The notes below the pieces were generated by a model. It saw only the letters and a list, made by a program, of their open reading frames with translations. It searched no databases and had not been told where the DNA came from. The position numbers and the translations under genes were made by a program. A stretch of 39,729 bases of DNA from a virus, in IMG/VR virus record IMGVR_UViG_3300028831_000290, positions 1 through 39,729 of that record. One strand, 5' to 3'. Positions within the stretch are counted from its first letter, which is position 1. Each line of letters begins with the position of its first letter. Below, one piece after another: positions 4,609-39,729 of this stretch.

Positions 4609-5241
4609 TCACCACCGGCTCGGCATCCCGCTCGTGTTGCTCTCGTGGTGCCACCAGTCCCACGTCACCTTCTCCACGTGCCGCATCACCGCGCCGGCGG
4701 CCCGGCACCGTAGCGTGAATTCGTGGTCCTCACCGCGGCGCTGGCCGTCGATGAGCTCGCCGGTGTCGTTGAACTGCTCGAAGCCTCCGGCCGCCCATGC
4801 CAGTTCAGTGCGCACCAGCGTGGTGATGGTGGTCTGGCACGGATCTTCATCGCTCCACTGGGAGAACGCCTTCTCGCCGAGGAACTGCGGGCCCTGGAAG
4901 ATCCGGCCATCAGGAAACCTGATCTGGAAGCGCGACCACACGTAGTCAGCCCGGTGCTCGACCGCCGCGCTGTAGAGCTCGACGAGGTGGCCCAGGTGCA
5001 TCGCGTCGTCGTCGTCCAGGAACGCCGTCCACTCGGTCTCCACGGCCAGCAGGCCACGGTGCCGGGTGCGTGCGGCGCCCTGGTGGCCGTGATCGACGAC
5101 CGTCACGATGCTCACCGGCACCTTATCGCCGAAGTGAACTTCCATCGCCGATGCCGCACCGCGAACGCTATGCAGTGCACGTTCCAGCATAGCGGCGCGA
5201 GGCGGGATGGTCGGAATGACGACCGTGATGCCGGGCAGCAT
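4609..5241 (-). CDS. GT2-family (GT-A fold) glycosyltransferase (210 aa)
   Basis: ATG 5241 overlaps the upstream stop (TGATG). Motifs ITVVIPTIPPR, FLDDDD (DxD) and GEDHEF. The ORF-track 256-aa version has a spurious N-terminal extension. Confidence 0.8.
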   Translation of the reverse strand: MLPGITVVIPTIPPRAAMLERALHSVRGAASAMEVHFGDKVPVSIVTVVDHGHQGAARTRHRGLLAVETEWTAFLDDDDAMHLGHLVELYSAAVEHRADYVWSRFQIRFPDGRIFQGPQFLGEKAFSQWSDEDPCQTTITTLVRTELAWAAGGFEQFNDTGELIDGQRRGEDHEFTLRCRAAGAVMRHVEKVTWDWWHHESNTSGMPSRW

Positions 5242-5393
5242 CAGCTCTTCACCGTTCCCCAGCCGTTGCAGCGGTTGCACGTCTCCCACTGCGTGCCGCC
5301 CTGACACACTTTGCAGCCCTTGCCGTTGCACGTTCGGCATGTGATGGTGAAGCCGCCCGCTCCGCAGCAGACCGGACACGTGACGTCAGCCAT
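5241..5393 (-). CDS. DnaJ-type zinc-finger mini-protein with four CXXC(X)GXG-like repeats (50 aa)
   Basis: Not in the ORF track. ATG 5393 shares its A with the upstream TAA (TAATG). Sequence MADVTCPVCCGAGGFTITCRTCNGKGCKVCQGGTQWETCNRCNGWGTVKS. Its TGA overlaps the next ATG. Confidence 0.75.
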   Translation of the reverse strand: MADVTCPVCCGAGGFTITCRTCNGKGCKVCQGGTQWETCNRCNGWGTVKS

Positions 5394-6106
5394 TACCAGC
5401 CCCTTTCGGTTGTGATCTTACTGAACAGTTCGAGGTTTGCACCCCGCAGGTCCCGATTGGACGGAACGAACAGCTCGCGCAGCGGCAGCCCGCTCGGACC
5501 CATCGAACCGCCCGGCACGCTGTGGTGCAGCCGGGACAGGAACTCGGTGTCCTCGTAGCCCCAGCCGGCGAAGCGTTCGTCCATCCCGCCAGCGGCCACC
5601 CATGCGGCGCGGGTGATGGCGAGCACGCCGGGGCATGGCGCGGAGTGTCGGTGCCAGTTCGCGCTGTCTTCAAACAGGTTACCGCCTCCGTTACCTACAA
5701 ACGGATTATTGATGATCAGGTGCGTCGCCGCTTCGCTGGCGTAGAGCACGTGGTCGTGCAGCCGCACCCACGGGTGGCGCTTGATCTGCTCGGTGGCCCA
5801 GCGCACGACGGCCGGGTCCGGCACGTGGTCGGCGCCGAACATCAGGAAAACGTAGCCGTGAGCGTGCTGGGCCGCGTCGTTGAGTGCACGGGACACGCTG
5901 AACGGTCGCGGCTCGACGCAGTTGTGAATCTCGCGCATCTCGCAGTGCGGCACGAACAGCGGGTCCACGCCCACGATCACCTCGTCAACGAGGCCCGTCA
6001 CGCGCAGCTGATCCCAGCGCCGGGCGTTGTAGCGCCACACCTTCGCCCGTTGTTTGCCGGCCGGGCTGTCGTCGGCGCCGAACGGCACCAGAACACTGAT
6101 CTTCAT
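5393..6106 (-). CDS. GT-A fold glycosyltransferase, GT2/galactosyltransferase-like (237 aa)
   Basis: ATG 6106 (MKISVLVPFG) overlaps the methyltransferase stop (ATGA) and follows GGAGAG. Contains GWGYEDTEF, which resembles the GWGGEDDD motif of the Glyco_transf_7C type. Confidence 0.7.
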   Translation of the reverse strand: MKISVLVPFGADDSPAGKQRAKVWRYNARRWDQLRVTGLVDEVIVGVDPLFVPHCEMREIHNCVEPRPFSVSRALNDAAQHAHGYVFLMFGADHVPDPAVVRWATEQIKRHPWVRLHDHVLYASEAATHLIINNPFVGNGGGNLFEDSANWHRHSAPCPGVLAITRAAWVAAGGMDERFAGWGYEDTEFLSRLHHSVPGGSMGPSGLPLRELFVPSNRDLRGANLELFSKITTERGW

Positions 6107-6831
6107 GCGGCACTCTCCAGTCCTAAGTAGAGCATGGCCTGACGGCCGAGGTACTCGCCATACGCGGGCGGGATGCACTCGCGGACCCCATCGCGGTTCA
6201 TCCATCCCACGCCGAGATCTTCACGGGCGAGCGCGACACCGTGAAAGTTGCCGATGTACTGCCGCAGCTCGCCGTCCCGGAACGGGCGGCCCATCTTCGT
6301 CTTCGGCATGTCGGTGTGGTCTTCACGGCCGAGCGGCCCCACGGGGTGCAGCGGGGGTTCGACGGGAAAGTTCATTTCGAAGTAGCGGTGCCGGTCCGTC
6401 TTCAGGCCGAACATCAGCCCGCACAGCCGCACGTCCGGGCGGAGGTTGCCCCTCCGCACTGCGCCCCCCACGTTCTCAATCCAGTACGGCAAGCCGCTCG
6501 CCTCGACAAGCTCGCGGAATGGGCCGATCAGCTGCGGGTGATCCCTGCCCTGGATCACCTGCGCATCACTGTCGGCCTGGCACGGTGGTGAACCGACGGC
6601 GAGCGCGGGCCGGTACTGGGCGATGAGCCCAGGCAGCATCTCCAGCACGTCGCCCTCTATCGACTCGAAAGGGTATCGGGCCCGGTGTCGTGGATCCTGC
6701 TCGATCCCGATCACTCGGAAGCCAGCGCGGACTAAGCCCGCGGATGCTCCGCCTTGGCAGCAGAACGCGTCGATCGCCACCGGCCGCCGGAGGTATGCGG
6801 GTGTGCCCACTAAGGGGTGCCAGACCTTCAT
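6103..6831 (-). CDS. DNA (cytosine-5) methyltransferase (242 aa)
   Basis: Motif I FCCQGGASAG, motif IV GSPPCQ and motif VI WIENV. ATG 6831 shares its A with the upstream TGA. Confidence 0.85.
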   Translation of the reverse strand: MKVWHPLVGTPAYLRRPVAIDAFCCQGGASAGLVRAGFRVIGIEQDPRHRARYPFESIEGDVLEMLPGLIAQYRPALAVGSPPCQADSDAQVIQGRDHPQLIGPFRELVEASGLPYWIENVGGAVRRGNLRPDVRLCGLMFGLKTDRHRYFEMNFPVEPPLHPVGPLGREDHTDMPKTKMGRPFRDGELRQYIGNFHGVALAREDLGVGWMNRDGVRECIPPAYGEYLGRQAMLYLGLESAA

Positions 6832-7544
6832 CACCACCGCCAGGCGTAGCGCAGGTCGGCCGCCCACACGGACGGATAAGTTTGCCGGATGCGGAACGCC
6901 ATGCCGAGCCCGCGCGCCAGGGTGGCGGTGCGCTCCAGCTTGAGCGCGAACGGCGTGCCGATGTCGTCGGACCAGCTCTCCCATTGGTCGACGCACCCGG
7001 GCCCGGTCAGCCCGTAGGCGTTGGTACCGCAGGCTTTCGCGGGAGACCAGACCTGCTGGTGCTGGAAGTGCATCACCTTGCCGGAGCTCTGCTCGGTGAT
7101 CGTGCCCTCGGCGTAGAGGCAGTACGCCGCAACGGGGATGGTGCTGCGGACGTAGTGCTGCGGGCCGCCGGTGGGCAGCGACACCCGGCCGGTCCGGCAG
7201 TCGGCGGCAGCCTGCCACTCGGTGGTGGTCTGGACCTTGTAGAACGTGCCGTTGTCGAACCACCCCGGCAAGGTCACCCATTCGCCGACGGTGACGAACT
7301 GCTCGTTGTAGGTGGGCGGCCACTTCGCCGGGTCGCCCCATGAGATGCGAGATTCGGTGGTGTTCTGCGGGCTCCAGCTCCACTGGCCGGCGACCTGCGT
7401 GCCGGACCAGTACTGCCCGGCCGAGCGGATACCGGACATCGCGTAGTCGGCGTAGGTGGGTACGGTGGCCGCGGTGCTGGCCGGGGTCATGGCGAGCGAC
7501 AGCCCGGCCAGCACCGCAAGCGTGAGGGTGAGAAAGCGTTTCAT
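6831..7544 (-). CDS. Secreted Trp/Cys-rich protein with a signal peptide (237 aa)
   Basis: ATG 7544 follows GAAGGAAG. The N-terminus MKRFLTLTLAVLAGLSLAMTPASTAAT looks like a Sec signal. The mature part has four Cys and many Trp. No family recognised. Confidence 0.7.
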   Translation of the reverse strand: MKRFLTLTLAVLAGLSLAMTPASTAATVPTYADYAMSGIRSAGQYWSGTQVAGQWSWSPQNTTESRISWGDPAKWPPTYNEQFVTVGEWVTLPGWFDNGTFYKVQTTTEWQAAADCRTGRVSLPTGGPQHYVRSTIPVAAYCLYAEGTITEQSSGKVMHFQHQQVWSPAKACGTNAYGLTGPGCVDQWESWSDDIGTPFALKLERTATLARGLGMAFRIRQTYPSVWAADLRYAWRW

Positions 7545-7717
7545 GACTGGACTTCCTTCGTGAGCTGTCGCGCCTCGATGAGGTCGGCGATACCGCGCAG
7601 CATGTTGATGATCTCCGTGTCGCTGCGGTGGCTGGACCACTGCGCGCGTCCTTCGCGATCCACCAGCACGACGAGATCGGTGGCGTTGAGGCGTTCCTGG
7701 GTGATGTGCAGCATCAT
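7541..7717 (-). CDS. Hypothetical protein (58 aa)
   Basis: ATG 7717 overlaps the upstream TGA (ATGA), and its own TGA overlaps the downstream ATG 7544. Sequence begins MMLHITQERLNATDLVVLVDREG. Confidence 0.55.
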   Translation of the reverse strand: MMLHITQERLNATDLVVLVDREGRAQWSSHRSDTEIINMLRGIADLIEARQLTKEVQS

Positions 7718-20289: not shown

Positions 20290-20862
20290 ATGGCCCGCCG
20301 GCTGAACAAGCGCGAACTGGCCGAGCGCCGCCGTCAGGGCTGGGACCTGTACGTGGCCGGCTGGACGCAGCGCGAGATCGCCGAGCACTTCGGTATCGAC
20401 CAGTCCACGGTGTCCGACGACTTCGCCGCGCTGCGGGCGGAGACACCTCGGCAGACCCGTGAGCAGCTGATCGAGAAGCACCAGGCCAGCCTGGCGTGGG
20501 CCACCCGGCGGCTGCGTGAGCTGGCCGAGAAGCCCGCCCCGCCGGTCACCGCGGGCCAGCTCGGCGCCGTGGTGCGCGACCCGCTGACCGGTGAGATCGT
20601 CCGGGACTACGGGCTCCAGCGGCAGGCCGCGCTTGACCTCGTCCGGCTCCAGGAGCGCGAGGCCAAGCTGCTCGGCCTGAACGCCGCCGACGTCGTCGAG
20701 GTGTCCGGCAGCCTGACCGTCATCGAGGGCAGCGTGGACGCCGAGGTGGCCCGGCTTGCCGCTCAGCTCGGCATGCAGGACCCTGCCGCTTTGCCGTCTG
20801 GTTGTGCTCAGGACGAGAGTTCAGAGGGTGTCCGGGGTTCGGATGCCGACGCCACCGCCTAA
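20290..20862 (+). CDS. Terminase small subunit with an N-terminal HTH (190 aa)
   Basis: GGGAGG precedes ATG 20290. HTH segment WTQREIAEHFGIDQSTVSDDF. Immediately upstream of the large subunit. Confidence 0.7.
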   Translation: MARRLNKRELAERRRQGWDLYVAGWTQREIAEHFGIDQSTVSDDFAALRAETPRQTREQLIEKHQASLAWATRRLRELAEKPAPPVTAGQLGAVVRDPLTGEIVRDYGLQRQAALDLVRLQEREAKLLGLNAADVVEVSGSLTVIEGSVDAEVARLAAQLGMQDPAALPSGCAQDESSEGVRGSDADATA

Positions 20863-20877
20863 GCCGAGAGACGGGCA

Positions 20878-22296
20878 ATGAGCGCCCCGGCGCTGAGCAA
20901 GGCCGATGAGCTCCGCATCCTGCGCCGGCTGGCCGAGCTCAAGCCGTTTCAGTGGCGCTGCCGCCGGCCGGGCTGCGACGGCCTACCTCATCCCGACCCC
21001 AACCCGCTGCTGTCGATGCCGCATCGGCACGCTCGCGCCGCGCAAGTGCCGCCGCCGGGTGATTGGTACTTCTGGTTCCTCATGGCCGGGCGCGGGTTCG
21101 GCAAGACGCGCACCGGCGCCGAGTGGATCAAGGACCGGATGATGAGCGAACCGGGCCACCGCGTCGCCGTCATCTGCCCGGACTTCGCCATCGGCCGCGA
21201 CGTCTGCATCGAGGGTGAGTCCGGCCTGCTCGGCATCGAGCCGAACCCCGGCCTGTTCCCGCCCGAGGTGCGCCGGGGCCTGAAGTGGAACCGGTCCATC
21301 GGCGAGCTCACGTTGCCCAACGGCAGCCAGCTGCGCATCTTCGGCGCCGACACCCGCAAGGACGCCGAGAGCCTGCGCGGGTACCAGTGCCACTCCGCCT
21401 GGTTCGAGGAGCTGGGCACGCAGCGCTACGGTGACGTCGCGTGGGACATGCTGGAGTTCGCGTTGCGTCTCGGCGACGATCCGCGCGTCGTGGTGACCGG
21501 CACCCCGCGGCCGACCGCGCTCATCAAGCGGCTGGTCAAGGATCCCGACGGCGTCATCACCAACGGCACTACCTACGACAACGAGCACAACCTGCCGGCG
21601 AAGATGCGCGACCGCATCAAGCGCCGCCACGAGGGCACGACGCTGGGCCAGCAAGAGCTGTTCGGCCTGCTGCTCGACGACGCCGTCGGCGCGCTGTGGA
21701 ACTCGGAGATGTTCCTCCGGCCGGACACCGCGGCCGAGCTGCCCGACTTCGTGCACGTCGTCATCGGGGTGGACCCGGCCGGCAGCGCGCACAAGACCTC
21801 GGACCTGACCGGCATCATCGCCGTCGGCCTGGACGCGGCTGGGCGGCTGTGGGTGCTGGCCGACAAAAGCGGGCGCTACTCTCCCGAGCAGTGGCGCACC
21901 GAGGTTTACGAGCTGTTTGACACCCTCGGCGCTGACCTCGTCGTGGGGGAGCGCAACTTCGGCGGCGACATGGTGGCCAGCACGCTGCGCGCCGTGCCTC
22001 CGGGTGAGCGGGTGCTGCCCTTCGAGCTGGTGACCGCGAGCCGGGGCAAGGTCATCCGGGCCCGGCCGGTGGCCGATCTCTACGAGCAGGGGCGTGTGCT
22101 GCACCTGGGCACCTTCGCCGATCTGGAGACCGACCTCACCAGCTGGATCCCGCCTGGCCAGTTCGACACCGAGGGCAACCCGATCGAGCCCAGCAACTGG
22201 AGCCCCGACCGCATGGACGCGCTGGTGTGGGCGGCCACGAAGCTGGGCGTCCGGCCACGTAAGCCGCGCCGGACGATGACATTCGTAGCCGCATGA
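20878..22296 (+). CDS. Terminase large subunit (472 aa)
   Basis: Walker A-like MAGRGFGKTRTG, with typical length and position. Confidence 0.85.
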   Translation: MSAPALSKADELRILRRLAELKPFQWRCRRPGCDGLPHPDPNPLLSMPHRHARAAQVPPPGDWYFWFLMAGRGFGKTRTGAEWIKDRMMSEPGHRVAVICPDFAIGRDVCIEGESGLLGIEPNPGLFPPEVRRGLKWNRSIGELTLPNGSQLRIFGADTRKDAESLRGYQCHSAWFEELGTQRYGDVAWDMLEFALRLGDDPRVVVTGTPRPTALIKRLVKDPDGVITNGTTYDNEHNLPAKMRDRIKRRHEGTTLGQQELFGLLLDDAVGALWNSEMFLRPDTAAELPDFVHVVIGVDPAGSAHKTSDLTGIIAVGLDAAGRLWVLADKSGRYSPEQWRTEVYELFDTLGADLVVGERNFGGDMVASTLRAVPPGERVLPFELVTASRGKVIRARPVADLYEQGRVLHLGTFADLETDLTSWIPPGQFDTEGNPIEPSNWSPDRMDALVWAATKLGVRPRKPRRTMTFVAA

Positions 22297-23913: not shown

Positions 23914-25749
23914 ATGGGGCTTCGAGATCTTGCTCTGCGGTCGGCGGGGGTGCGCGCCCGGCCACCGGCGCCGACCTCGGTCCGCCCGCCGGCCGGGGCG
24001 CTCGAAGCGCCCAGCGCCTTCGGCACGCCCGGCCAGCCGCTGTGGCCCTCGTTCGACCCGCAGACCGCCATCCGGCTCGGCCAGCGCAACGTGTTCGCCA
24101 TGCGCTGCGTCGAGGTGATCGCCAATTCGATCAGCGGCCTGCCGTACCAGGGCGGGAACGTCAAGAGCCGGACGCCGCGGCCCACCAGCCGCACCATGCA
24201 GCTGCTCGGCCCGGCGCCCGGCCGCCCCAACCCGAAATGGTCGAGCGCCAAGCTGTGGCGGCACTCGGCGATCCAGTACCTCATGACCGGCAAGTTCGCC
24301 TGGCTCAAGGAGTTCGACGACGCCGGGCGCATCATCGCGCTGTGGCCGTTGATGGCTCAGCACCTCACCCCCGTGCTGGCCGGGACGGGGTCGGCCGACT
24401 ATTTCACCGGCTTCGATTACGGCACACGCGGCCAGCCGGGCTACCGGCCGTTCAAGCTCGGCCAGGTTGTGTACTGCTGGCGTCCGTCGCAAGAGGACTT
24501 CCGCCAGCCCGAACCCCCGATGCGGCTGGCTCAGTGGGGCATCCAGGTCATGCGGCTGCTGGACGAGTTCGACCGCGGCTTCCTGCAGAACGGCGGCGTG
24601 CCTGCTCATCTCGTCGTGACTCCGGCATTCGAGGACCCGAACAGCCGTATTGCATTCCGGGACCAATTCCGGCGCAAGTTCGGCGGCCCGGCCAACGCGG
24701 GCAAGGTGGCCTTCGGCGAGTTCACCGACGACAGCGGTGACCTCGGTCAGGGGACAAGCCGGGCGCAGACCGTCGATGTCAAGGTCATCGGGCAAACCCA
24801 GAAGGACAGTCAGCTGCGCGAGTCCCGGATGGACCGTATCGACGAGATGTGCGCCGCGCTCGGTGTGCCGCTGTCGTTGCTGGGCATCAGCCGGGATTCG
24901 AAGTTCACGAACATGCAGACCGACCTCGAAGTCCTCTGGCAGATCACGAACAAACCGATCATCACCGAGCTGGAAGACAATACGAATGCGGCACTGTCCG
25001 ATCTGGACGGTCCGCAGGACGTCGGCTGGTTCGACGTGTCCGGCGTGCCGCAGCTGCGCAAGCCGCCGGTGTTCACCGAGCAGGGCGGGCTGGCCGCGGT
25101 CAAGGACGGGGTGATCACGCCCAACGAGTACCGCTCGGACCGCGGCCTGCCGCCGGTCGAGGGTGGCGATGATCTGGTCACCGCACCGAAGCCGGACGCG
25201 CTGCCACCCGCGGGCGAGCCGCAGCAGGACCCGCCTGCCCCGGCTCCCGTGTCGGCACCGAAGCTCAAGGCTGTGCGGGCGGCCGCGGTCCGCACCGACC
25301 TGCTCGACGTCGTGCGTGGGCAGCTGGCCGTCGAGCTGGCCGCCCAGCGCGCCGAGCTCGAAGCGCGGCAGGCCGGCAAGCGGGGCGGCCGCCGCCGGGC
25401 GCATGCGCTGCTCGACCTCGCGTTGGTCTACGACACCGAGCACTGGCAGCAGCGCATGGTCACCAACCTCGGGCCGGGCCTGCGCGCCGCGGGTTACGCC
25501 GACCCGGACATCGCCGGTTTCTCCGCCGACGTCACCGCGGCGGTGGCCGAGCAGCTGGCCGGCGCCGTCGAGCTGGACGCCGCGGCCTGGGAGCCGGACG
25601 GATACATGGCGGCGCTCGGTCAGGTGCTCGATCGCAAACCGGGCACGATGGTCGACCACGGCACCGTCGAACAGGCACTGCTGCAGCTAGCCGGCGGGCA
25701 AGGCGACGCCGCGGCCGCGCTATCTATGCTGGGCGGTGGTGGCGCGTGA
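23914..25749 (+). CDS. Portal protein (611 aa)
   Basis: GAGGGAG precedes ATG 23914. The call rests on size and on its position between terminase and the MuF/protease gene. Confidence 0.75.
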   Translation: MGLRDLALRSAGVRARPPAPTSVRPPAGALEAPSAFGTPGQPLWPSFDPQTAIRLGQRNVFAMRCVEVIANSISGLPYQGGNVKSRTPRPTSRTMQLLGPAPGRPNPKWSSAKLWRHSAIQYLMTGKFAWLKEFDDAGRIIALWPLMAQHLTPVLAGTGSADYFTGFDYGTRGQPGYRPFKLGQVVYCWRPSQEDFRQPEPPMRLAQWGIQVMRLLDEFDRGFLQNGGVPAHLVVTPAFEDPNSRIAFRDQFRRKFGGPANAGKVAFGEFTDDSGDLGQGTSRAQTVDVKVIGQTQKDSQLRESRMDRIDEMCAALGVPLSLLGISRDSKFTNMQTDLEVLWQITNKPIITELEDNTNAALSDLDGPQDVGWFDVSGVPQLRKPPVFTEQGGLAAVKDGVITPNEYRSDRGLPPVEGGDDLVTAPKPDALPPAGEPQQDPPAPAPVSAPKLKAVRAAAVRTDLLDVVRGQLAVELAAQRAELEARQAGKRGGRRRAHALLDLALVYDTEHWQQRMVTNLGPGLRAAGYADPDIAGFSADVTAAVAEQLAGAVELDAAAWEPDGYMAALGQVLDRKPGTMVDHGTVEQALLQLAGGQGDAAAALSMLGGGGA

Positions 25750-25952
25750 GTGAGGTGGCCGGAACATTCGACATGCCGGGCGCGATTCGGAAAGTGTTGG
25801 AAGAGCGGGCAGACGAGATTTTCTTATTCGAGATCCCGACGTTCGAGGAGAACGCGGCCAAGCTGCGTCGCGAACTGATGTTCGACTGGTACATGATGGC
25901 GCAGGTGCGTACGCCGCCGTCGGCTATGAAGATCGTCACGGACGTCTCATGA
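25746..25952 (+). CDS. Hypothetical protein, AT-richer (68 aa)
   Basis: GTG 25746 overlaps the portal stop, and its stop overlaps the next ATG (ATGA). Confidence 0.5.
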   Translation: MSEVAGTFDMPGAIRKVLEERADEIFLFEIPTFEENAAKLRRELMFDWYMMAQVRTPPSAMKIVTDVS

Positions 25953-27916
25953 CCACGCCCGCGGCCATCCCGCCGCCGGTCGAGAGCAGCAACACCGACG
26001 AGGTCATCGTGGCGCTGGGCGCGCTGCTGCTCGCCGGTGCGACGGTGGCCGCGGCTACGAAGGTACTCGGCACGCTGGCCGGGGTCGGCGCGAAGCTGGC
26101 CGGGGCGGTGTTCAAGGACCGGAAGCTGTCCAAGCTGCTGGGCAAGAAGGTGACAAAACCCGGACAGAACGCGGCCACATCCGCGCTGATCCGGCACGCC
26201 GCAGCCGAGCGGCAGACCGCGGCGCGCGCGGCCTACATGGTCTCTGCCGTGCTGCGCCTGGTGCCCGCCCACGCCACGGGCGACCCGGCCGTCATCGCCG
26301 CGGCGAACGCCCGGGAGGACACCTTCGCCGTCGCCCACGCCAAGGCGGCTGCACACCGGCAGGCCGCCACCAACGCGCTGATTCAGGCAGTCGGCAAGCG
26401 CAGGCCGGACAAGGACGGCCGCCTGCTCATGGGCTGGTACCTCGATGATGGTGCGAACAACTGCGCCACCTGCCTCGCGGCCGACGGGACCAACTTCGAC
26501 GCGCTCGACCCGCCCATCATCGGGTGGCCGGGCCACGTGCACCCGCACTGCTACTGCGAGGCCGGCGCCCCGCACCCCACGGAGGTCATGGTGGACGACG
26601 TCGTCACACAGCGGGCGGAGCTGCCTCCGGAAGTGCGCGCCATCGAGCTGGAGCCGGAGGCGCGGGCGAGCGGGCTGCAGGCTACGGCCAGCGGCCGGAA
26701 GCTGTGGAAATGGCTCACTGGCGCGGGCGGGCTCTCGAAGTTTGCCGGCAGTCCGCATCCGTGGCAGGCCCTGGTGGACTTTCTGGTCAGCAAGGGCGTG
26801 CCGCCCGGCGTCGCCAAGGGCGAGGCCACCAACATCATGCAGGCGTCCGCGGCAGGTAAGGCCCTGTTCGCCAAGGGCCACAAGGGAAAGCACAAGAAGC
26901 GGAGCAGCGACATGAAGACCGAGACCCGCGCAGCCGTCATTACCGAGGTCCGTGGACCCGGCACCGCCAAGCCCGACGACCCGCCCGGCTTCACCGCGCG
27001 CATGGTGCCCTACGGCGTGCCGGACAGCTACCGCACCAGCTGGCGCCAGGGCGTGTTCGGCCCGGCGCTGGAGAAGCGCAGCGCGGCGGGCCACGCCATC
27101 CCGGTCGTCTGGAACCACGACCCCGGCGACCCGGTCGGCCAGGTCGTCAACTACCGCGACGAAGCGGACGCCTTCTACGCCGACGTCGAGTTCGACGACC
27201 TCGATGCGGTCCCGCGGGCTCGGCAGGCGCACGCGCAACTGCGCGCCAACGCCAAGACGGGCAAGCCGACGATGGGCCAGTTCAGCTTCGCGTTCGTCCG
27301 GGGCCAGGAGCAGGAAGACCCGGAGCACCGCGGCGTGATGCAGCAGACCGAGGTGGACGCGGTGCAGGAGTTCAGCATCGTGCTCAACGGCGCGGTGCCG
27401 GGCACCAGCGTGACCGCCACCCGGGCCGCCGGCCGCGTCGACGCGCGCACCGCGGCCGACCTGATCGAGCGTTTCGGCCGGGGTGAGGTCGACCTCACCA
27501 GCGCGCTGGTCGAGCTGCGCAGCGCGGCCGCGCCGTCCACCACCCCGCAGTTCGAGGTGCGGGCGCTTGGCGACGCGCAGCCCACCATCGCCCCGCTGGA
27601 CGTGCTGGCCGAGGTGGACACCGCGCTGGTCGGCCTGGCCGAGCAGCTCGATAAGGGCGAAGTCGAGGCGGCCCGGAAATTCTTCAGCAAGGCGGCGGGC
27701 CGGCTGAGCGAGCTGCAATACGTGCTCGGCCTGGTGCCGGGCGTCGAGGGCTACGGCGAGACCTACGCGTGGCGGGAGCTGCAGGCCGGCGAGCGGCGCG
27801 CGGCGGGCGACGAGACGCAGGGCGCCTCTGTGGACGAGGACGACCCGTTCGCCGGGCTGGGCGAGCACCGCGCGGTGCCGGGTTACCGCGGGCGGCCGGG
27901 CTGGACGCGCCGATGA
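25949..27916 (+). CDS. MuF-like minor capsid protein / HK97-type prohead protease / scaffold-like C-terminus fusion (655 aa)
   Basis: MuF motif NNCATCLAADGT...GHVHPHCYC. Protease-like PVVWNHDPGDPVG and GQFSFAFV. Helical C-terminal tail (LAEQLDKGEVEAARKFFSKAAGRLSELQ). Confidence 0.75.
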   Translation: MTTPAAIPPPVESSNTDEVIVALGALLLAGATVAAATKVLGTLAGVGAKLAGAVFKDRKLSKLLGKKVTKPGQNAATSALIRHAAAERQTAARAAYMVSAVLRLVPAHATGDPAVIAAANAREDTFAVAHAKAAAHRQAATNALIQAVGKRRPDKDGRLLMGWYLDDGANNCATCLAADGTNFDALDPPIIGWPGHVHPHCYCEAGAPHPTEVMVDDVVTQRAELPPEVRAIELEPEARASGLQATASGRKLWKWLTGAGGLSKFAGSPHPWQALVDFLVSKGVPPGVAKGEATNIMQASAAGKALFAKGHKGKHKKRSSDMKTETRAAVITEVRGPGTAKPDDPPGFTARMVPYGVPDSYRTSWRQGVFGPALEKRSAAGHAIPVVWNHDPGDPVGQVVNYRDEADAFYADVEFDDLDAVPRARQAHAQLRANAKTGKPTMGQFSFAFVRGQEQEDPEHRGVMQQTEVDAVQEFSIVLNGAVPGTSVTATRAAGRVDARTAADLIERFGRGEVDLTSALVELRSAAAPSTTPQFEVRALGDAQPTIAPLDVLAEVDTALVGLAEQLDKGEVEAARKFFSKAAGRLSELQYVLGLVPGVEGYGETYAWRELQAGERRAAGDETQGASVDEDDPFAGLGEHRAVPGYRGRPGWTRR

Positions 27917-28071
27917 ACGAGGAGCTGACGCGGTACCTCGCTGCCGCTGTGATCAAGGCGGGCGGTGAGGTACGACTCACGCACGAAGATCGAATTCAGG
28001 CGTTCGACTTGACACTCAAGGTCGACGACGAGACTGATGACCTGATCATCAGTGCCGAGGTGGCCGAGTGA
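27913..28071 (+). CDS. Hypothetical small acidic protein, AT-richer (52 aa)
   Basis: ATGA overlap upstream and GTGA overlap downstream. Confidence 0.5.
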   Translation: MNEELTRYLAAAVIKAGGEVRLTHEDRIQAFDLTLKVDDETDDLIISAEVAE

Positions 28072-29129
28072 GCGCCGTTGTCTACGCGCCCTACATCGAC
28101 CCGAGCACCTTCTACCGGCTGCTTGAGCCGGCCCGGGTGACGAACACGCCGGTCGTCGAGCACCTGCCGAACGTCGGCGCGGCGGAGACGGTGGTGCTGA
28201 ACCGGCCGCTGGATGCCGGCATCGCCGAGCAGGTCCGGCTGTGGCGCGCCGAGGGGCGCCGGGTGGTCGTGGACCTCGACGACGACTTCGACGCCGTCGT
28301 GCCGGAGCACCGTATCCACGGCCGGTACACCACCGAGTTCCTGCACCAGGCATGCTACTGGGCGTCGGCGGTGACCTGCTCGACGCCCGCGCTCGCCGAA
28401 CGGTACGGCTACGGCCACGGCGAGGTGCTGCGGAACTGCATCCCGGAAAGCTACCTGTCGGTAACCCGACGATCCCGGGTGCCTGGGTACATCGAGCTAG
28501 GTGGTGTGCTGGATAACAGCGTCGGGACGTGGGTCGGCTGGTATGGCTCGCTCGGCAGCCACCCGCGTGACCCGGCTGCCGCCGGGCGCGGCGTGGGCGA
28601 CGCGCTCAACCCGCACCCCGACGTCGAGTTCGTGTTCGCCGGGCCGGGCAAGGACGCGCCGCAGCTCGCCGAGTTGTTCGGCCTGCAGCGCCCGGTGCGC
28701 GAGCTGGGGTTTTTCTCGATGCTCGGCCTCATCCAGATCATTAGCGAGTTCGATATCGGCATCGTGCCGCTGGAGATCAACCCGTTCAACGAGGCGAAGT
28801 CCTACCTCAAGGGGCTGGAGTTCGCCGCGGTGGGCGTGCCGGTCATCGCCAGCCCGACGCCGGAGTACATCCGGATGGCGGCGCAGGGCGGCTGTGTGAC
28901 GGCGGCCAGGCGCGACGATTGGTGGCTGTGGCTGCGTGAGCTCATCAGGCAGCCTGAGATACGGGCTGAGCACGCTGCGCGCGGCCGGGCATGGGCCGCC
29001 GAGCAGACCTACGAGAAGCACGCTGGTCTCTGGCGTGCGGTTTGGTACGCTGATGGACAAGCCAGTGCGGACAACGGGGCTGATGCGACCACCGCCGGGC
29101 GACGTGTGACGACCGACCACGCCCCCTGA
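28068..29129 (+). CDS. GT-B fold glycosyltransferase, GT4/GT1-like (353 aa), inside the head module
   Basis: C-terminal signature NEAKSYLKGLEFAAVGVPVIAS resembles the E-x7-E region (..EA.a.G.PV.as) of retaining GT-B enzymes. G/C-rich third positions. Confidence 0.65.
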   Translation: MSAVVYAPYIDPSTFYRLLEPARVTNTPVVEHLPNVGAAETVVLNRPLDAGIAEQVRLWRAEGRRVVVDLDDDFDAVVPEHRIHGRYTTEFLHQACYWASAVTCSTPALAERYGYGHGEVLRNCIPESYLSVTRRSRVPGYIELGGVLDNSVGTWVGWYGSLGSHPRDPAAAGRGVGDALNPHPDVEFVFAGPGKDAPQLAELFGLQRPVRELGFFSMLGLIQIISEFDIGIVPLEINPFNEAKSYLKGLEFAAVGVPVIASPTPEYIRMAAQGGCVTAARRDDWWLWLRELIRQPEIRAEHAARGRAWAAEQTYEKHAGLWRAVWYADGQASADNGADATTAGRRVTTDHAP

Positions 29130-29141
29130 GAGGATGCGACC

Positions 29142-30404
29142 ATGCCCCAGACCACCGCCGAATGGCGCCGCGATGCCACCGTCGAGGAGCTCACCGCCCG
29201 CGTCGAGGAGATGCGCGCCGAGTGGGCCGAGACCAGCAAGCTCGACCGCGAATCCGGCGAGTTCCGCAAGGCCAAGACCGAATTCCTGGACGAGGTCGAA
29301 CAGATCGACGTCAACCTCACGCTGCGCTCGATGGCGACCATGCCGCCGGCCCTGCGCAACGAGGCGCGCGCGGGCGGAGCCGACAACGGCACGCTGGCCC
29401 CGCAATACGAGCGTCGCAGCCCCGGTGAAATCGTCGTGGCCGACGAGGACTTCATGAACTGGTGCAAGCGCGCCGCGGCCAAGGGCTCGATGATCGGTGA
29501 GTCGCCCGGCGTCGAGCTGCGCAGCCTGATCAGCAGCGTCGAAACCCGGGCGCTGGTGGCCGCGGGCGACGCGAACGGCTCCAGCACCATGTTGCCGGTC
29601 GGCCAGCCGTTCCTGGTCGACACCCGGCGCCGCCGGCTGTTCATCCGCGACCTCATCGGCGTGCAGGGCACCGGGCTGGCCGCGATCCCGTACATCCGGG
29701 AGCTCAACCCGGTGGCGAACGCGCTGTCAGCGAGCACCGTGGCCGAGGGTGCGACGAAGCCGGAAGCCAAGGTCGAGTTCACGCCCGACATCGCGCCGGT
29801 CCAGGTGATCGCGGCCACGATCCCGATCACCACGCAGATCATGGAGGACTCGCCCACCCTGATGGGGTACATCAACGGGCGTCTCACCTACATGCTGGAG
29901 TACCGCGAGGAAGACGAGATCATCCGCGGGAACGGCGTGACGCCGGACCTGAAGGGCATCCTCACCTATTCCGGGATCCAGACGACGCCCACCGCGGGTG
30001 CGGGCGAGTACGCCATCACCATCGGCAACGCAATCGCGAAGATCGAGCTGGTCGACGGCTACGCCGACGGTGTGGCGATGAACCCGGCCACCTTCTGGGC
30101 GATGGTCACCCACCGCGCCGCGGGCGGCTCCGGCACGTTCGACGCCGGCGCCTTCACGCAGTCCCCGATCCAGTACGTGTGGGGCCTGCCGGTCGTGCGT
30201 ACGAACGCGATGGCCGCCAACCAGAACCTCGTCGGCAACTTCGCGATGGGCGCCACGCTGTTCGACCGCTCGCAGTCCGGCGTCCGGATCTTCGAGCAGC
30301 ACGGCACCTTCGCCGCGGAGAACAAGGTGCTGCTGCGCGCGGAGGAGCGCGTCGCGCTGGCCGTCAACCGGCCGGACTTCTTCTGCGTCGCCACGACCAG
30401 CTGA
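29142..30404 (+). CDS. Major capsid protein, HK97 fold with an N-terminal delta-like domain (420 aa)
   Basis: GAGGA precedes ATG 29142. The call rests on size, the helical N-terminal ~100 aa and position after the protease. Confidence 0.85.
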   Translation: MPQTTAEWRRDATVEELTARVEEMRAEWAETSKLDRESGEFRKAKTEFLDEVEQIDVNLTLRSMATMPPALRNEARAGGADNGTLAPQYERRSPGEIVVADEDFMNWCKRAAAKGSMIGESPGVELRSLISSVETRALVAAGDANGSSTMLPVGQPFLVDTRRRRLFIRDLIGVQGTGLAAIPYIRELNPVANALSASTVAEGATKPEAKVEFTPDIAPVQVIAATIPITTQIMEDSPTLMGYINGRLTYMLEYREEDEIIRGNGVTPDLKGILTYSGIQTTPTAGAGEYAITIGNAIAKIELVDGYADGVAMNPATFWAMVTHRAAGGSGTFDAGAFTQSPIQYVWGLPVVRTNAMAANQNLVGNFAMGATLFDRSQSGVRIFEQHGTFAAENKVLLRAEERVALAVNRPDFFCVATTS

Positions 30405-33468: not shown

Positions 33469-34035
33469 ATGGCCCTCGTGAATACGGCCGACATGATGAT
33501 CGGCCCCGGCAAGCTGCGATACGCGCCCGTGGGGACCGACGACGCGCTGATCGTCGCCACCTACACCCCGAACTGGACCAGCTGGACCGAGGTCGGCGCG
33601 ACCGACGGCGGCGTGCAGATGTCCATCGCCAAGGACTACGCGAACCACAGCATCGACCAGGTGGCCGACTGGGTGGCGAGCACGATCACCGAGCGGCACA
33701 CGACCGTGCAGACCTCGGTGGTGGAGGCGGGCAATCTCGCGAAGCTGGCGCTGGTCAACAACGGCGGCACCACGACGCCGTCCTTCAACCCCTCATGGGC
33801 GAAGTACGAGCCGACCACCGACCTGATCGTCACGCAGGAGACCTACATTTCCGTGGCGCTCGAAGGCGTCACGCTGGCCGGCAAGAAGCGCATCATCGTG
33901 GCGCGCCGGGTGCTCAACGTGGACAGCGTGTCCTGGGAGCACAAGAAGGACGGCAAGACGATGTACGGCTTGAGCTTCGCCGGGCACTATGTGTCCGACA
34001 CGGTCGCGCCGTTCGTCGTCTACAGCCAGCTCTGA
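33469..34035 (+). CDS. Major tail protein (188 aa)
   Basis: GAAAGG precedes ATG 33469. Lies directly upstream of the G/GT chaperone pair. Confidence 0.75.
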   Translation: MALVNTADMMIGPGKLRYAPVGTDDALIVATYTPNWTSWTEVGATDGGVQMSIAKDYANHSIDQVADWVASTITERHTTVQTSVVEAGNLAKLALVNNGGTTTPSFNPSWAKYEPTTDLIVTQETYISVALEGVTLAGKKRIIVARRVLNVDSVSWEHKKDGKTMYGLSFAGHYVSDTVAPFVVYSQL

Positions 34036-38603: not shown

Positions 38604-39729
38604 ATGCCCACCAACGCAAACGCCGCCGGTGTCTGGACAGCACAGTCCAAGAATAACGCCAAGTTCGGCCGCCAGCTCATGCAAATGCTGTTCGAGAACA
38701 ACGACGGCACACCTCTGAATGGCACCCGATCCGGCGTGGTCGCCACGACCGGACTCACGCTGATGTCCGATCTGCTCGTGTACAACGTCGTCGGGCTCAG
38801 CATGGACGTCGCGCCCGGATGGGGCCTCGCCCACCGTGCCGGTCAAGGTCCGTACCCGGGCTGCCTGGACGCTGTCGTGACGGTGACATGCGATCCGGCG
38901 CCGGCGTCGAACCCGCGTAACGACCTGGTGATCATGCGGATGTACGATGCCGCACTCGGCGACACTCCGCCAGGCGGGCAGCCGTGCCGTATCGAGATCA
39001 TCACCGGCACACCGGCCGCGTCGCCGCTGGACCCGATGACGCCCAACGCACTCGGTGTGCTCACCGGGTTCACCGACGGCGCCGGTGGTGTCGGCATCCC
39101 GCTGGCCCGTGCCCGGGTGTCGACGACCGGCGTGATCACCCTGACTCCGATCCGCCGGGCGGCCAGCCTCGTCGGTGGTCCGCGCGTGCTCCTCGAAGGT
39201 GACGTCGACAACGGCGGACGGGTGGGTCACTTCCGGTACAACGCGAGTACTGATGTGCTGGAAATCAAACGCAGTGACGGCAGCTGGTACCCCATCCCGA
39301 CGGGCACGTCCGGGATTGTCGGATCGATGGTCGGCGACTCGGGATTGATCACAACGGACGCACCGAGCGCGTGGGCTAGCGGCACCAAAGTGCTGTCCAA
39401 TGTGGTCACCAGCTTTTCGGCGGTATCGGGTGGCAAATACGAGGTCGTCGCCGACGTCAACTGGACCTGTGCGACGGCGTCCAACCAGGACGCGCTGGGT
39501 ATCGTGTGGCGATCGGGTGCCGGCCTGGTGGCCACGGACGCGCTCGCCGGCTACAAGGGCCCGCGCACGCACCCGGACGGCACGGGCTACAACACCATCA
39601 CCCTGTACGGCACGTTCACCGCAGTGAGTACCGGCACCCACAACGTCGGCGTGATCGGCTGGAAGCCCACTGGCAACACCGGGTCCTCGCAGATTCGGGC
39701 CAACGCGTCCGGCTGGGCGGCCAACCGTA
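38604..39729 (+). CDS. Minor tail protein, 5' part (full length 382 aa after wrapping to 142..164)
   Basis: GGAGAAACC precedes ATG 38604. The frame is open to the window end and is absent from the ORF track because there is no in-window stop. Confidence 0.8.
   Translation, partial: MPTNANAAGVWTAQSKNNAKFGRQLMQMLFENNDGTPLNGTRSGVVATTGLTLMSDLLVYNVVGLSMDVAPGWGLAHRAGQGPYPGCLDAVVTVTCDPAPASNPRNDLVIMRMYDAALGDTPPGGQPCRIEIITGTPAASPLDPMTPNALGVLTGFTDGAGGVGIPLARARVSTTGVITLTPIRRAASLVGGPRVLLEGDVDNGGRVGHFRYNASTDVLEIKRSDGSWYPIPTGTSGIVGSMVGDSGLITTDAPSAWASGTKVLSNVVTSFSAVSGGKYEVVADVNWTCATASNQDALGIVWRSGAGLVATDALAGYKGPRTHPDGTGYNTITLYGTFTAVSTGTHNVGVIGWKPTGNTGSSQIRANASGWAANR
39589..39729. repeat. Terminal direct repeat copy 2, identical to 1..141
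   Basis: 141/141 identity checked by eye. Confidence 0.95.

Follow-up and report, generated by a model that had tools for sequence, protein, structure and literature searches.

A GT-B glycosyltransferase gene at the protease-capsid junction of an uncultured phage suggests late glycosylation of the virion

The window analyzed here, the whole stretch of 39,729 nucleotides of an IMG/VR virus record (IMGVR_UViG_3300028831_000290), encodes a GT-B glycosyltransferase within its head operon. We favor, with moderate confidence, the reading that this enzyme and a distant pair of GT-A enzymes O-glycosylate the virion late in infection, with the C terminus of the capsid protein (...TTS) as the probable site. 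The ends of the window overlap by 141 bases, which indicates that the assembly is circular, with a length of 39,588 bp, and bears out the genome size of 39.6 kb given in the original prediction. The phage is uncultured and high in GC. Among 50,697 records of cultured phages, a near-identity search gave no match to its head region and, judged by this comparison, it is a phage without a cultured relative.

The genes around the junction are the following.

25949..27916, plus strand: S78 prohead protease-domain fusion of 655 aa, upstream of the island described below (PF04586, 3e-6, residues 355-491; phrog_80)
27913..28071, plus strand: small acidic ORF of 52 aa, 58.5% GC against 69-73% in its neighbors (ATGA and GTGA overlaps, codon-position GC)
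28068..29129, plus strand: GT-B glycosyltransferase (GT4-like, retaining-type) of 353 aa, predicted to be soluble, pI 5.5 (PF13692, phrog_7162, AF2, Foldseek)
29142..30404, plus strand: HK97-type major capsid protein of 420 aa, C terminus ...RPDFFCVATTS (PF05065, 8e-34; phrog_10)

Residues 115-516 of the protease/scaffold fusion match phrog_80, "head maturation protease." Its TGA stop is overlapped by the ATG of the 52-aa ORF (ATGA), and the TGA stop of the latter is overlapped by the GTG start codon of the GT-B gene (GTGA), whose residues 241-262 are NEAKSYLKGLEFAAVGVPVIAS. These overlaps confirm that a 353-aa ORF with a GT-B C-terminal signature is part of the head operon through translational coupling, behind a 52-aa ORF that is AT-richer, as had been noticed. 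Only 12 bases separate the GT-B stop from the start of the capsid gene, which has its own ribosome-binding site (GAGAGGA). The region from 20 to 32 kb has no promoter-like site and no convincing terminator, as expected of a single late operon. We propose that the GT-B enzyme would be made late, from the transcript that also encodes prohead protease and major capsid protein.

The AT-richer flank had been taken as a sign that the whole module was inserted. This argument stands for the 52-aa ORF and fails for the GT-B gene. The codon-position GC of the small ORF (0.68/0.34/0.74) is coding-like, and it has three homologs, at 72-98% identity. It is absent from the closest full relatives of the window, L087 (75% identity in the GT) and L001 (58%), and one homolog lies in an unrelated phage contig with a Mu-like head module (L134), where its neighbors are small genes and, close by, an Acb2/Tad1-like gene. 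From its sequence and distribution, it looks like a real, mobile accessory gene that was recently inserted between the protease and GT-B genes. A 68-aa ORF that follows the portal gene of the window shows no homology to the 68-aa neighbor of the small ORF's homolog in L134. A recent insertion of the GT-B gene itself is not supported, given its composition (69.3% GC, GC3 of 0.88), which is typical of the genome, and its position, which is kept among homologs down to 30-40% identity.

The assignment to the GT-B fold was upheld by structure prediction. The AF2 model (pLDDT 91.4, pTM 0.89) shows alternating beta/alpha elements in both halves and a compact N-terminal domain, and Foldseek gave 413 matches in the PDB at E <= 0.001, of which the best 50 are GT-B glycosyltransferases, mostly GT4. 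The best matches include GlgM, PimB', HepE, BshA, MshA, PimA, and SdgB, with E values of 1e-12 to 1e-9. In Pfam, the protein passes the gathering cutoff of PF13692 Glyco_trans_1_4 (30.4 bits for a cutoff of 27) and scores below those of PF13524 (23.8 for 25) and PF00534 (14.3 for 26.4). It also matches phrog_7162, "glycosyltransferase," at 1e-28. A single-sequence search of the PDB matched no chain, and a profile search retrieved MshA with an E value no better than about 8e-4. The profile aligns the segment FNEaKSwLKglE with the EX7E region of MshA (FNESF-GLVAME); the C-terminal motif is here E242-X8-E251, one residue longer than EX7E. Eleven residues do not vary among 49 homologs with identities as low as 37% (R46, D71, D72, H165, D168, G192, N241, K244, S245, K248, and E251), and the polar ones among them are predicted to serve nucleotide-sugar binding and catalysis. 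No transmembrane segment was found in the protein (maximum KD19 of 1.67, within the Rossmann core). We propose that this protein of 353 aa functions as a soluble, catalytically active, GT4-like glycosyltransferase.

The solved retaining GT4 enzymes of Actinobacteria and Firmicutes, MshA (3c4q), PimB' (3oka), PimA, GlgM (6tvp), BshA (3mbo), and SdgB (7ec1), share with this protein the fold of two Rossmann domains (TM of 0.55-0.70, E values down to 3e-12 in Foldseek), but only 11-18% identity among the best 50 matches. The phage-borne, capsid-linked enzyme differs from them by its smaller N-domain and by the extra residue in the motif. SdgB is a protein O-glycosyltransferase acting on Ser. The family to which the enzyme belongs is shared with phrog_7162 and with the "Glycosyl transferases group 1" proteins of uncultured Caudovirales; clustering at 50% identity gives it at least 2,044 clusters (E <= 1e-30), and the best structural matches in BFVD have TM values of 0.72-0.78. 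The only cultured phages with a homolog are Arthrobacter Racecar-like and phi92-like phages (38.7% identity to Racecar gp174, 28% to phi92 gp163/164). There it is found in non-structural regions, together with other glycosyltransferases and a nucleotidyltransferase, and this location outside structural modules counts against a role in the virion.

The original prediction held that such enzymes are normally missing from head modules. Our analysis of related loci, based on same-strand, GC3-filtered ORF calls and tblastn anchoring, does not bear this out. The GT-B gene occupies the junction between protease and capsid genes in most related contigs, dozens in all. The order terL, portal, protease, GT-B, and major capsid gene, with 29 bp to 5.3 kb between the last two, was found in 27 of 81 dereplicated loci anchored on the glycosyltransferase. 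Anchoring on the capsid gave no loci with a single protein query; with an alignment as query, most of the loci obtained have the order protease, GT-B, capsid. Corndog provides another case, since its head operon has an O-methyltransferase and three glycosyltransferases between its portal gene and its protease gene (PMC4351075). In relatives of the window, the interval between GT-B and capsid genes is often an island of 1-5 kb, with GT-B at its head and the capsid gene always at its end. The 58 ORFs found in these intervals include 9 GT2 enzymes, 5 GDP-mannose dehydratases/epimerases, at least 5 SAM methyltransferases (PF13578 in 3 of the 58), and 4 PhyH-type dioxygenases, together with RmlD-like, UDP-Glc dehydrogenase, and cytidylyltransferase enzymes. 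The GT2, sugar-nucleotide, and methyltransferase content points to glycan synthesis. The concern that the gene might be a common syntenic structural gene is thus half right: it is commonly syntenic, but it encodes an enzyme and is absent from some relatives (L138 and L168), and so it is accessory rather than structural. A homolog at 46% identity lies among head-tail connector genes in L004. A 46%-identical homolog in an Amycolatopsis genome contig, probably a prophage, is accompanied by a capsid protein with no tblastn link to that of the window; hence, the acceptor cannot be a conserved capsid surface.

Sugar-coated particles have been reported for the mycobacteriophages Che8, Corndog, and Myrna. 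To our knowledge, a few mycobacteriophages are the only phages for which glycosylated virions have been demonstrated. Freeman et al. (2023, Cell Host Microbe 31:1216) reportedly described the glycosylation cassettes, gp108-110 in Che8 and gp35-38 in Corndog. [quoted passage not shown] The available text of PMC11256854 also cites the findings of 2023.

The window has counterparts to some of these components in a second transcription block.

4609..5379, minus strand: GT-A1 (GT2) glycosyltransferase (PF00535, 2e-8; phrog_14775, 4.5e-35)
5393..6106, minus strand: GT-A2 glycosyltransferase, 237 aa from MKISVLVPF (PF02709, 1e-9; PF10111, 2e-6; phrog_1721, 7.7e-5)
6103-6831: C5-cytosine methyltransferase, abutting the upstream side of GT-A2 (motifs FCCQGGAS, PPCQ, and ENV; phrog_363, 5e-27)

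This agrees with the claim of three glycosyltransferases in two blocks. The phrog_14775 family of GT-A1 is also that of the glycosyltransferase domain of Che8 gp108 (1.2e-36), and phrog_1721, which GT-A2 matches weakly, is the family of Che8 gp109 (9e-114) and Corndog gp37. Pairwise BLASTP comparisons of the GT-A enzymes with their Che8 and Corndog counterparts gave marginal matches only, including one of GT-A2 to Corndog gp37 (E of 5e-4) over the segment GG-x-DE-x-F-x-G-x-Y-[ED]-D. The pair lies 22 kb from the GT-B gene, on the opposite strand and directly after the methyltransferase gene; this split between two transcription blocks is a difference from the Che8 and Corndog cassettes. In other phages the genes are closer: about 25 loci have a GT-A1 homolog 1-5 kb from GT-B, 9 of the 16 loci found from GT-A1 have GT-B within about 6 kb, and in many phages the two homologs are adjacent to one another and close to capsid genes. 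Moreover, Che8 gp108 and gp109 and Corndog gp37 directly match GT2 genes of the GT-B islands.

The likeness to Che8 and Corndog thus consists of several phage-encoded glycosyltransferases in an actinobacteriophage, of glycosyltransferases inside the head operon (at the portal/protease interval in Corndog and the protease/capsid interval here), and of PF13578/TylF-like methyltransferases in Corndog gp35, Che8 gp108, and the GT-B islands of relatives. Among the window ORFs scanned with Pfam or PHROGs, there was no sugar O-methyltransferase (TylF/PF13578), and there is no sugar-nucleotide gene in the window. These two absences, and the distance of the GT-A pair, count against a role in the virion. 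So does the lack of kinship between GT-B and the Che8 and Corndog enzymes: homology was rejected (hhalign against Che8 gp108, probability 0.2), and a search with GT-B gave no mycobacteriophage match even at E <= 1. For the GT25-type gp110/gp38 (phrog_854), tblastn gave no match (E <= 0.01), either in the window or in any of the fetched loci. By analogy, GT-B may take the place of this missing enzyme.

The virion-directed late function proposed originally remains the best reading, because the GT-A pair falls in the PHROGs of the Che8 and Corndog cassettes and homologs of GT-B and GT-A1 lie beside capsid genes. Under the proposed mechanism, GT-B would transfer a sugar, in the cytoplasm, from a nucleotide-sugar to a virion protein, most likely to a Ser or Thr at the exposed C terminus of the capsid protein (...VATTS), thereby filling the role of gp110/gp38. 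GT-A1 and GT-A2 would then extend this first sugar into a short glycan, and the end product would be a sugar-coated particle, as in Che8, Corndog, and Myrna. We infer the acceptor, the GT-B-first order, the donor sugar, and the benefit, which could be surface shielding or stability.

The C termini of the candidate acceptors give some indications. The capsid protein ends in Ser/Thr in 19 of 34 dereplicated GT-B-linked loci and in none of 5 GT-less relatives (p = 0.047, uncorrected for phylogeny), 4 of which end in "AA." Capsid proteins and tail-tube proteins of Che8 and Corndog all end in Ser. The correlation between capsid C-terminal Ser/Thr and the presence of GT-B is small and is kept as weak evidence. 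The ending ...TTS of the window's capsid protein was dropped as evidence by itself, since Ser and Thr near the end are common without the enzyme too: homologous capsid proteins of GT-less cultured phages end in GTFA, SLTAS, DLTA, GTAGK, APTP, and DLTP. The tail tube might, by analogy, be a second acceptor.

33469..34035, plus strand: probable major tail (tube) protein of 188 aa, C terminus ...VVYSQL, between connector and chaperone/tape-measure genes

This protein has no Pfam match and is 67-79% identical to the gene at the same position in L001 and L087.

Glycosylation of DNA or of the host envelope is less likely than that of the virion. The enzymes could glycosylate hydroxymethylated bases of the phage DNA against restriction, with GT-B acting around packaging, and the methyltransferase gene directly upstream of GT-A2, the PhyH-type dioxygenases of the islands, and the Foldseek matches of DNA-modifying phage GT-B enzymes to BshA/MshA (bioRxiv 10.1101/2023.12.21.572611) all fit this. 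Known hypermodification clusters (C5-methyltransferase, 5mYOX, and GT; ThyS and GT) and T4 beta-glucosyltransferase also involve phage GT-A/GT-B enzymes. However, the window ORFs scanned with Pfam or PHROGs include no 5mYOX/TET, thymidylate-synthase-like, or dCMP hydroxymethylase protein, nor are 5mYOX/TET or ThyS-like families among those listed for GT-B neighbors, so that a hydroxyl acceptor on the DNA has no evident source. The neighbors of GT-B are instead head, sugar-nucleotide, and O-methyltransferase genes rather than nucleotide metabolism genes, the methyltransferase association is not conserved (1 of about 80 GT-B loci, L028, and 0 of 16 GT-A1 loci), and the protein is acidic; we regard this explanation as improbable. 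A late change of a cell-wall or membrane glycoconjugate, e.g., for receptor masking, which would keep progeny from binding to debris, or for superinfection exclusion, seems a little less improbable, yet still unlikely. Phage glycosyltransferases commonly serve serotype conversion (see the review cited in PMC12619734), and the closest solved structures (PimA, PimB', MshA, and GlgM) act on lipids or small molecules in the envelope and thiol pathways of actinobacteria. Yet Gtr-type serotype-converting enzymes are membrane-embedded or work with a flippase and are carried as lysogeny morons near an integrase, whereas GT-B has neither transmembrane segment nor flippase partner and the window ORFs scanned include no integrase or lysogeny module. 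Furthermore, its place beside the capsid gene in a late head operon would leave a cytoplasmic product little time to reach the surface, and its GT-A partners are homologous to virion-glycosylation enzymes.

The target could also be another phage product, such as the scaffold/protease fusion, the portal, or the tail fibers/receptor-binding proteins, or a free glycan or small molecule. The translational coupling of GT-B, which is with the protease/scaffold gene and not the capsid gene, the homolog among connector genes in L004, and the 15 of 34 GT-linked capsid proteins without C-terminal Ser/Thr are in favor of it, but the islands invariably stop at the capsid gene and the known precedent acts on capsid and tail tube, so we give this little weight. 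That the fold is degenerate, serving only structure or assembly without any catalysis, is very improbable. The longer motif and the compact N-terminal domain would fit such a protein; the invariance of the motif and the other polar residues, the relatives that dispense with the gene, and its co-occurrence with sugar-nucleotide enzymes argue against it.

Beyond late glycosylation of this phage's virion, we suggest, more tentatively and with some doubt, that GT-B acts as the enzyme that primes the capsid in a hypervariable island for glycan synthesis, located at the protease-capsid junction across a very large and wholly uncultured clade of Actinomycetota phages from environmental metagenomes. 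Judged by sequence searches, the GT-B family is common in environmental phages and differs from the enzyme family of the mycobacterial virion-glycosylating phages. The virion glycan lowers antibody binding and neutralization, according to PMC12363180 and PMC11600133, which makes the subject relevant to phage therapy. The phage offers a compact three-gene system with a candidate acceptor, the capsid C terminus, and natural GT-less relatives as controls, and it could be a source of parts for engineered glycan shields on therapeutic phages. The trait appears modular, with a fixed GT-B gene beside the capsid gene and interchangeable GT2, methyltransferase, and sugar-nucleotide genes. This suggests that virion glycosylation is much more widespread than in a few mycobacteriophages and that it may be built around a different founding enzyme, GT-B instead of GT25. 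If this is true, sugar-coated capsids would be common in environmental phages and would have an evolutionary origin separate from that of the GT25-based mycobacteriophage system, with causes that have nothing to do with mammalian antibodies, e.g., resistance to proteases, to desiccation, or to adhesion, or escape from capsid recognition by the host.

The window encodes a predicted GT-B glycosyltransferase directly upstream of its major capsid gene, in a genome of about 69% GC whose gene layout is that of a siphovirus-type phage. The head region is organized as follows.

20290-22296, + strand: small and large terminase genes
23914-25749, + strand: portal gene
25746-25952, + strand: 68-aa ORF after the portal gene, no family match
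25949-27916, + strand: 655-aa protein with an S78 prohead protease domain
27913-28071, + strand: 52-aa ORF, between the protease gene and the GT-B gene
28068-29129, + strand: 353-aa GT-B ORF
29142-30404, + strand: HK97-type major capsid protein
Downstream of the capsid gene, + strand: connector, tail tube, chaperone, tape-measure and distal tail genes

Because bases 1-141 are identical to bases 39589-39729 (an assembler k-mer overlap), we consider the window to represent a complete circular genome of 39,588 bp, whose junction is spanned by a 432-aa ORF, a probable tail protein gene. The start of the 52-aa ORF lies on the stop of the protease gene (ATGA), that of the 353-aa ORF lies on the stop of the 52-aa ORF (GTGA) with a ribosome-binding site (GAGGTGG) ahead, and the capsid gene starts 12 bases past the GT-B stop codon. 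The sequence-level statements of the original prediction all hold, among them the GTGA coupling and the signature NEAKSYLKGLEFAAVGVPVIAS, which is located at residues 241-262 of the 353-aa protein. In a simple scan, the 20-32 kb region showed neither a promoter-like site nor a convincing terminator. In the 655-aa protein, the S78 domain covers residues 355-491 and is preceded by a Cys/His-rich stretch (NNCATCLAADG...HVHPHCYCE) that we read as MuF-like; members of this family range from 632 to 692 aa, and in relatives MuF and protease are sometimes two genes. The 68-aa ORF has a counterpart at the same place (53% identity) in L087 and is missing in L001, these two contigs being the closest full-length relatives.

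The 353-aa protein is acidic (pI 5.5), with no membrane segment in its sequence. Its score for Glyco_trans_1_4 exceeds the Pfam gathering cutoff, and among PHROGs it hits phrog_7162 (“glycosyltransferase”, 1e-28). The GT-B fold, initially proposed from the C-terminal signature, is supported by an AlphaFold2 model (49-sequence alignment; pLDDT 91.4, pTM 0.89) with two Rossmann-like halves, for which Foldseek searches of the PDB gave GT4-type retaining enzymes, including GlgM, PimB', HepE, BshA, MshA and PimA, and also SdgB, among the matches listed (E 3e-12 to 1e-9). SdgB O-glycosylates serines in a protein. In the family profile, the stretch FNEaKSwLKglE aligns to the EX7E region of MshA and is one residue longer. 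Across the 49-sequence alignment, R46, D71, D72, H165, D168, G192, N241, K244, S245, K248 and E251 do not vary, even in homologs at 37% identity, which argues for an active enzyme.

Homologs of this protein are numerous, with 575 matches in a word-indexed search, many on contigs of 37-41 kb, and at least 2,044 clusters at 50% identity (E <= 1e-30) in an exhaustive one. In both L087 (75% identity in the glycosyltransferase, 92% in TerL) and L001 (58% in the glycosyltransferase), the GT-B gene directly follows the protease gene, without the 52-aa ORF. When the window proteins were compared by tblastn with all fetched loci, the order TerL-portal-protease-GT-B-capsid was found in 27 of the 81 dereplicated loci anchored on the glycosyltransferase, down to glycosyltransferase identities of only 30-40% and including contigs of metagenome-assembled genomes binned as Ilumatobacteraceae and Acidimicrobiaceae. 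The distance between the GT-B and capsid genes varies in these loci from 29 bp to 5.3 kb. A second sample, anchored on the capsid protein and therefore independent of the glycosyltransferase, also has GT-B between protease and capsid in most loci, and lacks it there in five (L138, with a 55% identical capsid, L168, with 60%, L148, L159 and L142). From the two samples we conclude that GT-B is old at the protease-capsid junction, yet dispensable. The possibility that it would prove a common syntenic structural gene is thus half right: the synteny is common, but the product is an accessory enzyme rather than a structural component. Outside this arrangement, an Amycolatopsis sp. genome contig (L004, JBEXTX010000053.1) from an isolate, resembling a prophage or a phage contig, has a 46% identical GT-B in the midst of its head-tail connector genes; the capsid gene upstream of it, of 320 aa, is a different one. 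Amycolatopsis provides a clue to the host, since it is the sole named cultured organism tied to close GT-B homologs.

An AT-richer flank had been taken as a sign that the whole module was inserted. This does not hold for GT-B, which has a genome-typical composition (69.3% GC, GC3 0.88) and a conserved position, but the 52-aa ORF does appear to be a real insert at this junction. Its GC content is 58.5%, with a coding-like pattern across codon positions, and only three homologs (72-98% identity) were found among 5.8 billion proteins. One is at the same position in a near-identical phage (L135, 2513-2671). Another lies in L134 (8139-8321), a 39.8-kb contig of a phage quite unlike that of the window, which encodes a Mu-type portal and MuF; it is found there within a series of small genes between these two, three genes past an Acb2/Tad1-like gene (Acb2/Tad1_hairpin) that we take to encode an anti-CBASS/Thoeris sponge. 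These homologs suggest a small mobile gene moving between the head modules of unrelated phages, perhaps with an accessory role in counter-defence.

The genes around GT-B in related phages give further indications on its function. Among 120 same-strand ORFs, two on each side of GT-B homologs in dereplicated IMG/VR loci (glycosyltransferase identity >=31%), the Pfam families seen most often were Peptidase_S78 (11), Methyltransf_23 (9) and Phage_Mu_F (8), followed by portal, Phage_capsid and Glycos_transf_2 (7 each) and GDP-mannose dehydratase/epimerase (5). The 58 ORFs between GT-B and the capsid gene include nine GT2, five GDP_Man_Dehyd/Epimerase, at least five SAM methyltransferases (including PF13578), four PhyH dioxygenases, four RmlD-like reductases, and one each of C-methyltransferase, UDP-glucose dehydrogenase and cytidylyltransferase. 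Gene orders differ: GT-B, GT2, two unknowns, UDP-Glc dehydrogenase, two GT2 and the capsid gene in L006; protease, HNH, GT-B, an unknown, GT2 and capsid in L109; and the capsid gene immediately after GT-B in L110. Given this content, we conclude that the protease-capsid junction of the clade harbors a variable glycan-synthesis island with GT-B as its constant member, of which the window has the minimal version. Islands of 3-5 kb from GT-B to capsid (L013, L014, L023, L024, L026, L091, L092 and L096) encode GDP-mannose 4,6-dehydratase/epimerase, RmlD-like reductase, C-/O-methyltransferases and PhyH-type Fe/2OG dioxygenases, and thus imply methylated deoxyhexose glycans or acceptor hydroxylation in some relatives.

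The two GT-A genes of the window, GT-A1 (4609-5379, - strand) and GT-A2 (5393-6106, - strand), probably belong with GT-B. About 25 loci have a GT-A1 homolog 0.2-5 kb away from GT-B, often in the GT-B-capsid interval, and 9 of 16 IMG/VR loci anchored on GT-A1 have GT-B within about 6 kb. The pair is simply relocated in the window, to a minus-strand site that follows the tail genes and a putative lysis gene. Directly upstream of GT-A2, with its stop abutting the GT-A2 start, is a C5-cytosine DNA methyltransferase gene (6103-6831, - strand, about 242 aa; motifs DAFCCQGGAS, GSPPCQ and ENVGG; phrog_363 at 5e-27). A 426-aa frame at 6103-7383 is an artefact of longest-ORF calling that fuses this gene with an overlapping upstream frame. 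The gene further upstream, at 6831-7547 (- strand), has a product of about 238 aa without a family match, in which an N-terminal signal peptide (MKRFLTLTLAVLAGLSLAMTPAS...) is clear. A putative secreted or lipoprotein gene shares the leftward block with the methyltransferase and GT-A genes.

What do these enzymes modify? The adjacent methyltransferase makes DNA glycosylation worth attention, and the GT-B enzymes with which phages are known to modify DNA share the resemblance to BshA and MshA. However, the methyltransferase link is found in one of about 80 GT-B loci and in none of 16 GT-A1 loci, no 5mYOX/TET or ThyS-type enzyme is present among the scanned window ORFs, and the conserved neighbors of GT-B are head and sugar-nucleotide genes, which leaves this explanation very improbable. 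Modification of the host envelope, as could be expected because the closest solved structures use lipids and small molecules as acceptors, is only slightly less so: a soluble GT-B whose gene keeps its place next to the capsid gene within a late operon fits it poorly, and no integrase was seen among the scanned ORFs of the genome. Most likely, GT-B would be produced late, along with the protease and the capsid protein, and would attach the initial sugar to a virion protein in the cytoplasm, after which GT-A1 and GT-A2 would lengthen the glycan; here, we infer the acceptor, the order and the donor sugar. The best candidate glycan site is the capsid C terminus (...RPDFFCVATTS). In Che8 and Corndog, the last residue of both the capsid and the tail-tube proteins is Ser. 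The last capsid residue is Ser/Thr in 19 of 34 dereplicated GT-B-linked capsids and in none of the five relatives without GT-B, where “AA” is the ending in four cases (Fisher p 0.047, or 0.012 with six cultured controls without GT-B, shared ancestry being uncorrected). This tie to GT-B presence lends some support to the site, although the correlation is weak and Ser/Thr near the C terminus is common in the capsid family anyway. Less probably, the acceptor may be another phage protein. Pseudomonas phage D3 (L129, NC_002484), whose capsid ends in ...SLTAS, the sole Ser end among the six controls, has a gene annotated “alpha-2,3-sialyltransferase” (orf7, 5951-6409) two genes past its major head protein.

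There are already precedents for glycosyltransferases within a head module and for glycosylation of phage capsids, and the premise that head modules are normally free of such enzymes is therefore outdated. The portal-protease interval of mycobacteriophage Corndog contains an O-methyltransferase, two glycosyltransferases and a putative GlcNAc-transferase (PMC4351075). According to three later reports that cite Freeman et al. 2023 (PMC11600133, PMC12619734, PMC12363180), the glycosyltransferases of Che8, Corndog and Myrna modify the C termini of capsid and tail-tube subunits, reducing antibody binding, and one of these reports (PMC12363180) calls the GT25 enzyme Che8 gp110/Corndog gp38 essential. 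By Pfam, the Che8 and Corndog enzymes are GT-A types (GT2-like, GT25) and TylF-like methyltransferases. GT-A1 shares phrog_14775 (4.5e-35) with the glycosyltransferase domain of Che8 gp108 (1.2e-36), which also matches the GT2 gene of the L092 island (31% over 178 aa, E 8e-17). GT-A2 weakly matches phrog_1721 (7.7e-5), the family of Che8 gp109 and Corndog gp37, both of which hit homologs of GT-A2 at other loci (E 1e-7 to 4e-12). In contrast, no GT25 homolog was found in the window or any fetched locus, and GT-B is unrelated to the Che8 and Corndog enzymes, with no match in mycobacteriophages even at E <= 1. Among 50,697 cultured phage records, GT-B matches at E <= 1e-5 were restricted to four Arthrobacter phages and phi92 records, those in phi92-like phages being weaker; in Racecar the homolog lies outside the structural genes.

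The window thus seems to combine a gp108-like and a gp109-like glycosyltransferase with a GT-B where mycobacteriophages have GT25. As far as the searched libraries show, the new elements include a GT-B family as a conserved capsid-adjacent enzyme, apparently replacing GT25, and a variable glycan island at the protease-capsid junction of a large clade without a cultured member. The inference is comparative only, and the window offers a compact three-glycosyltransferase system that is amenable to testing.
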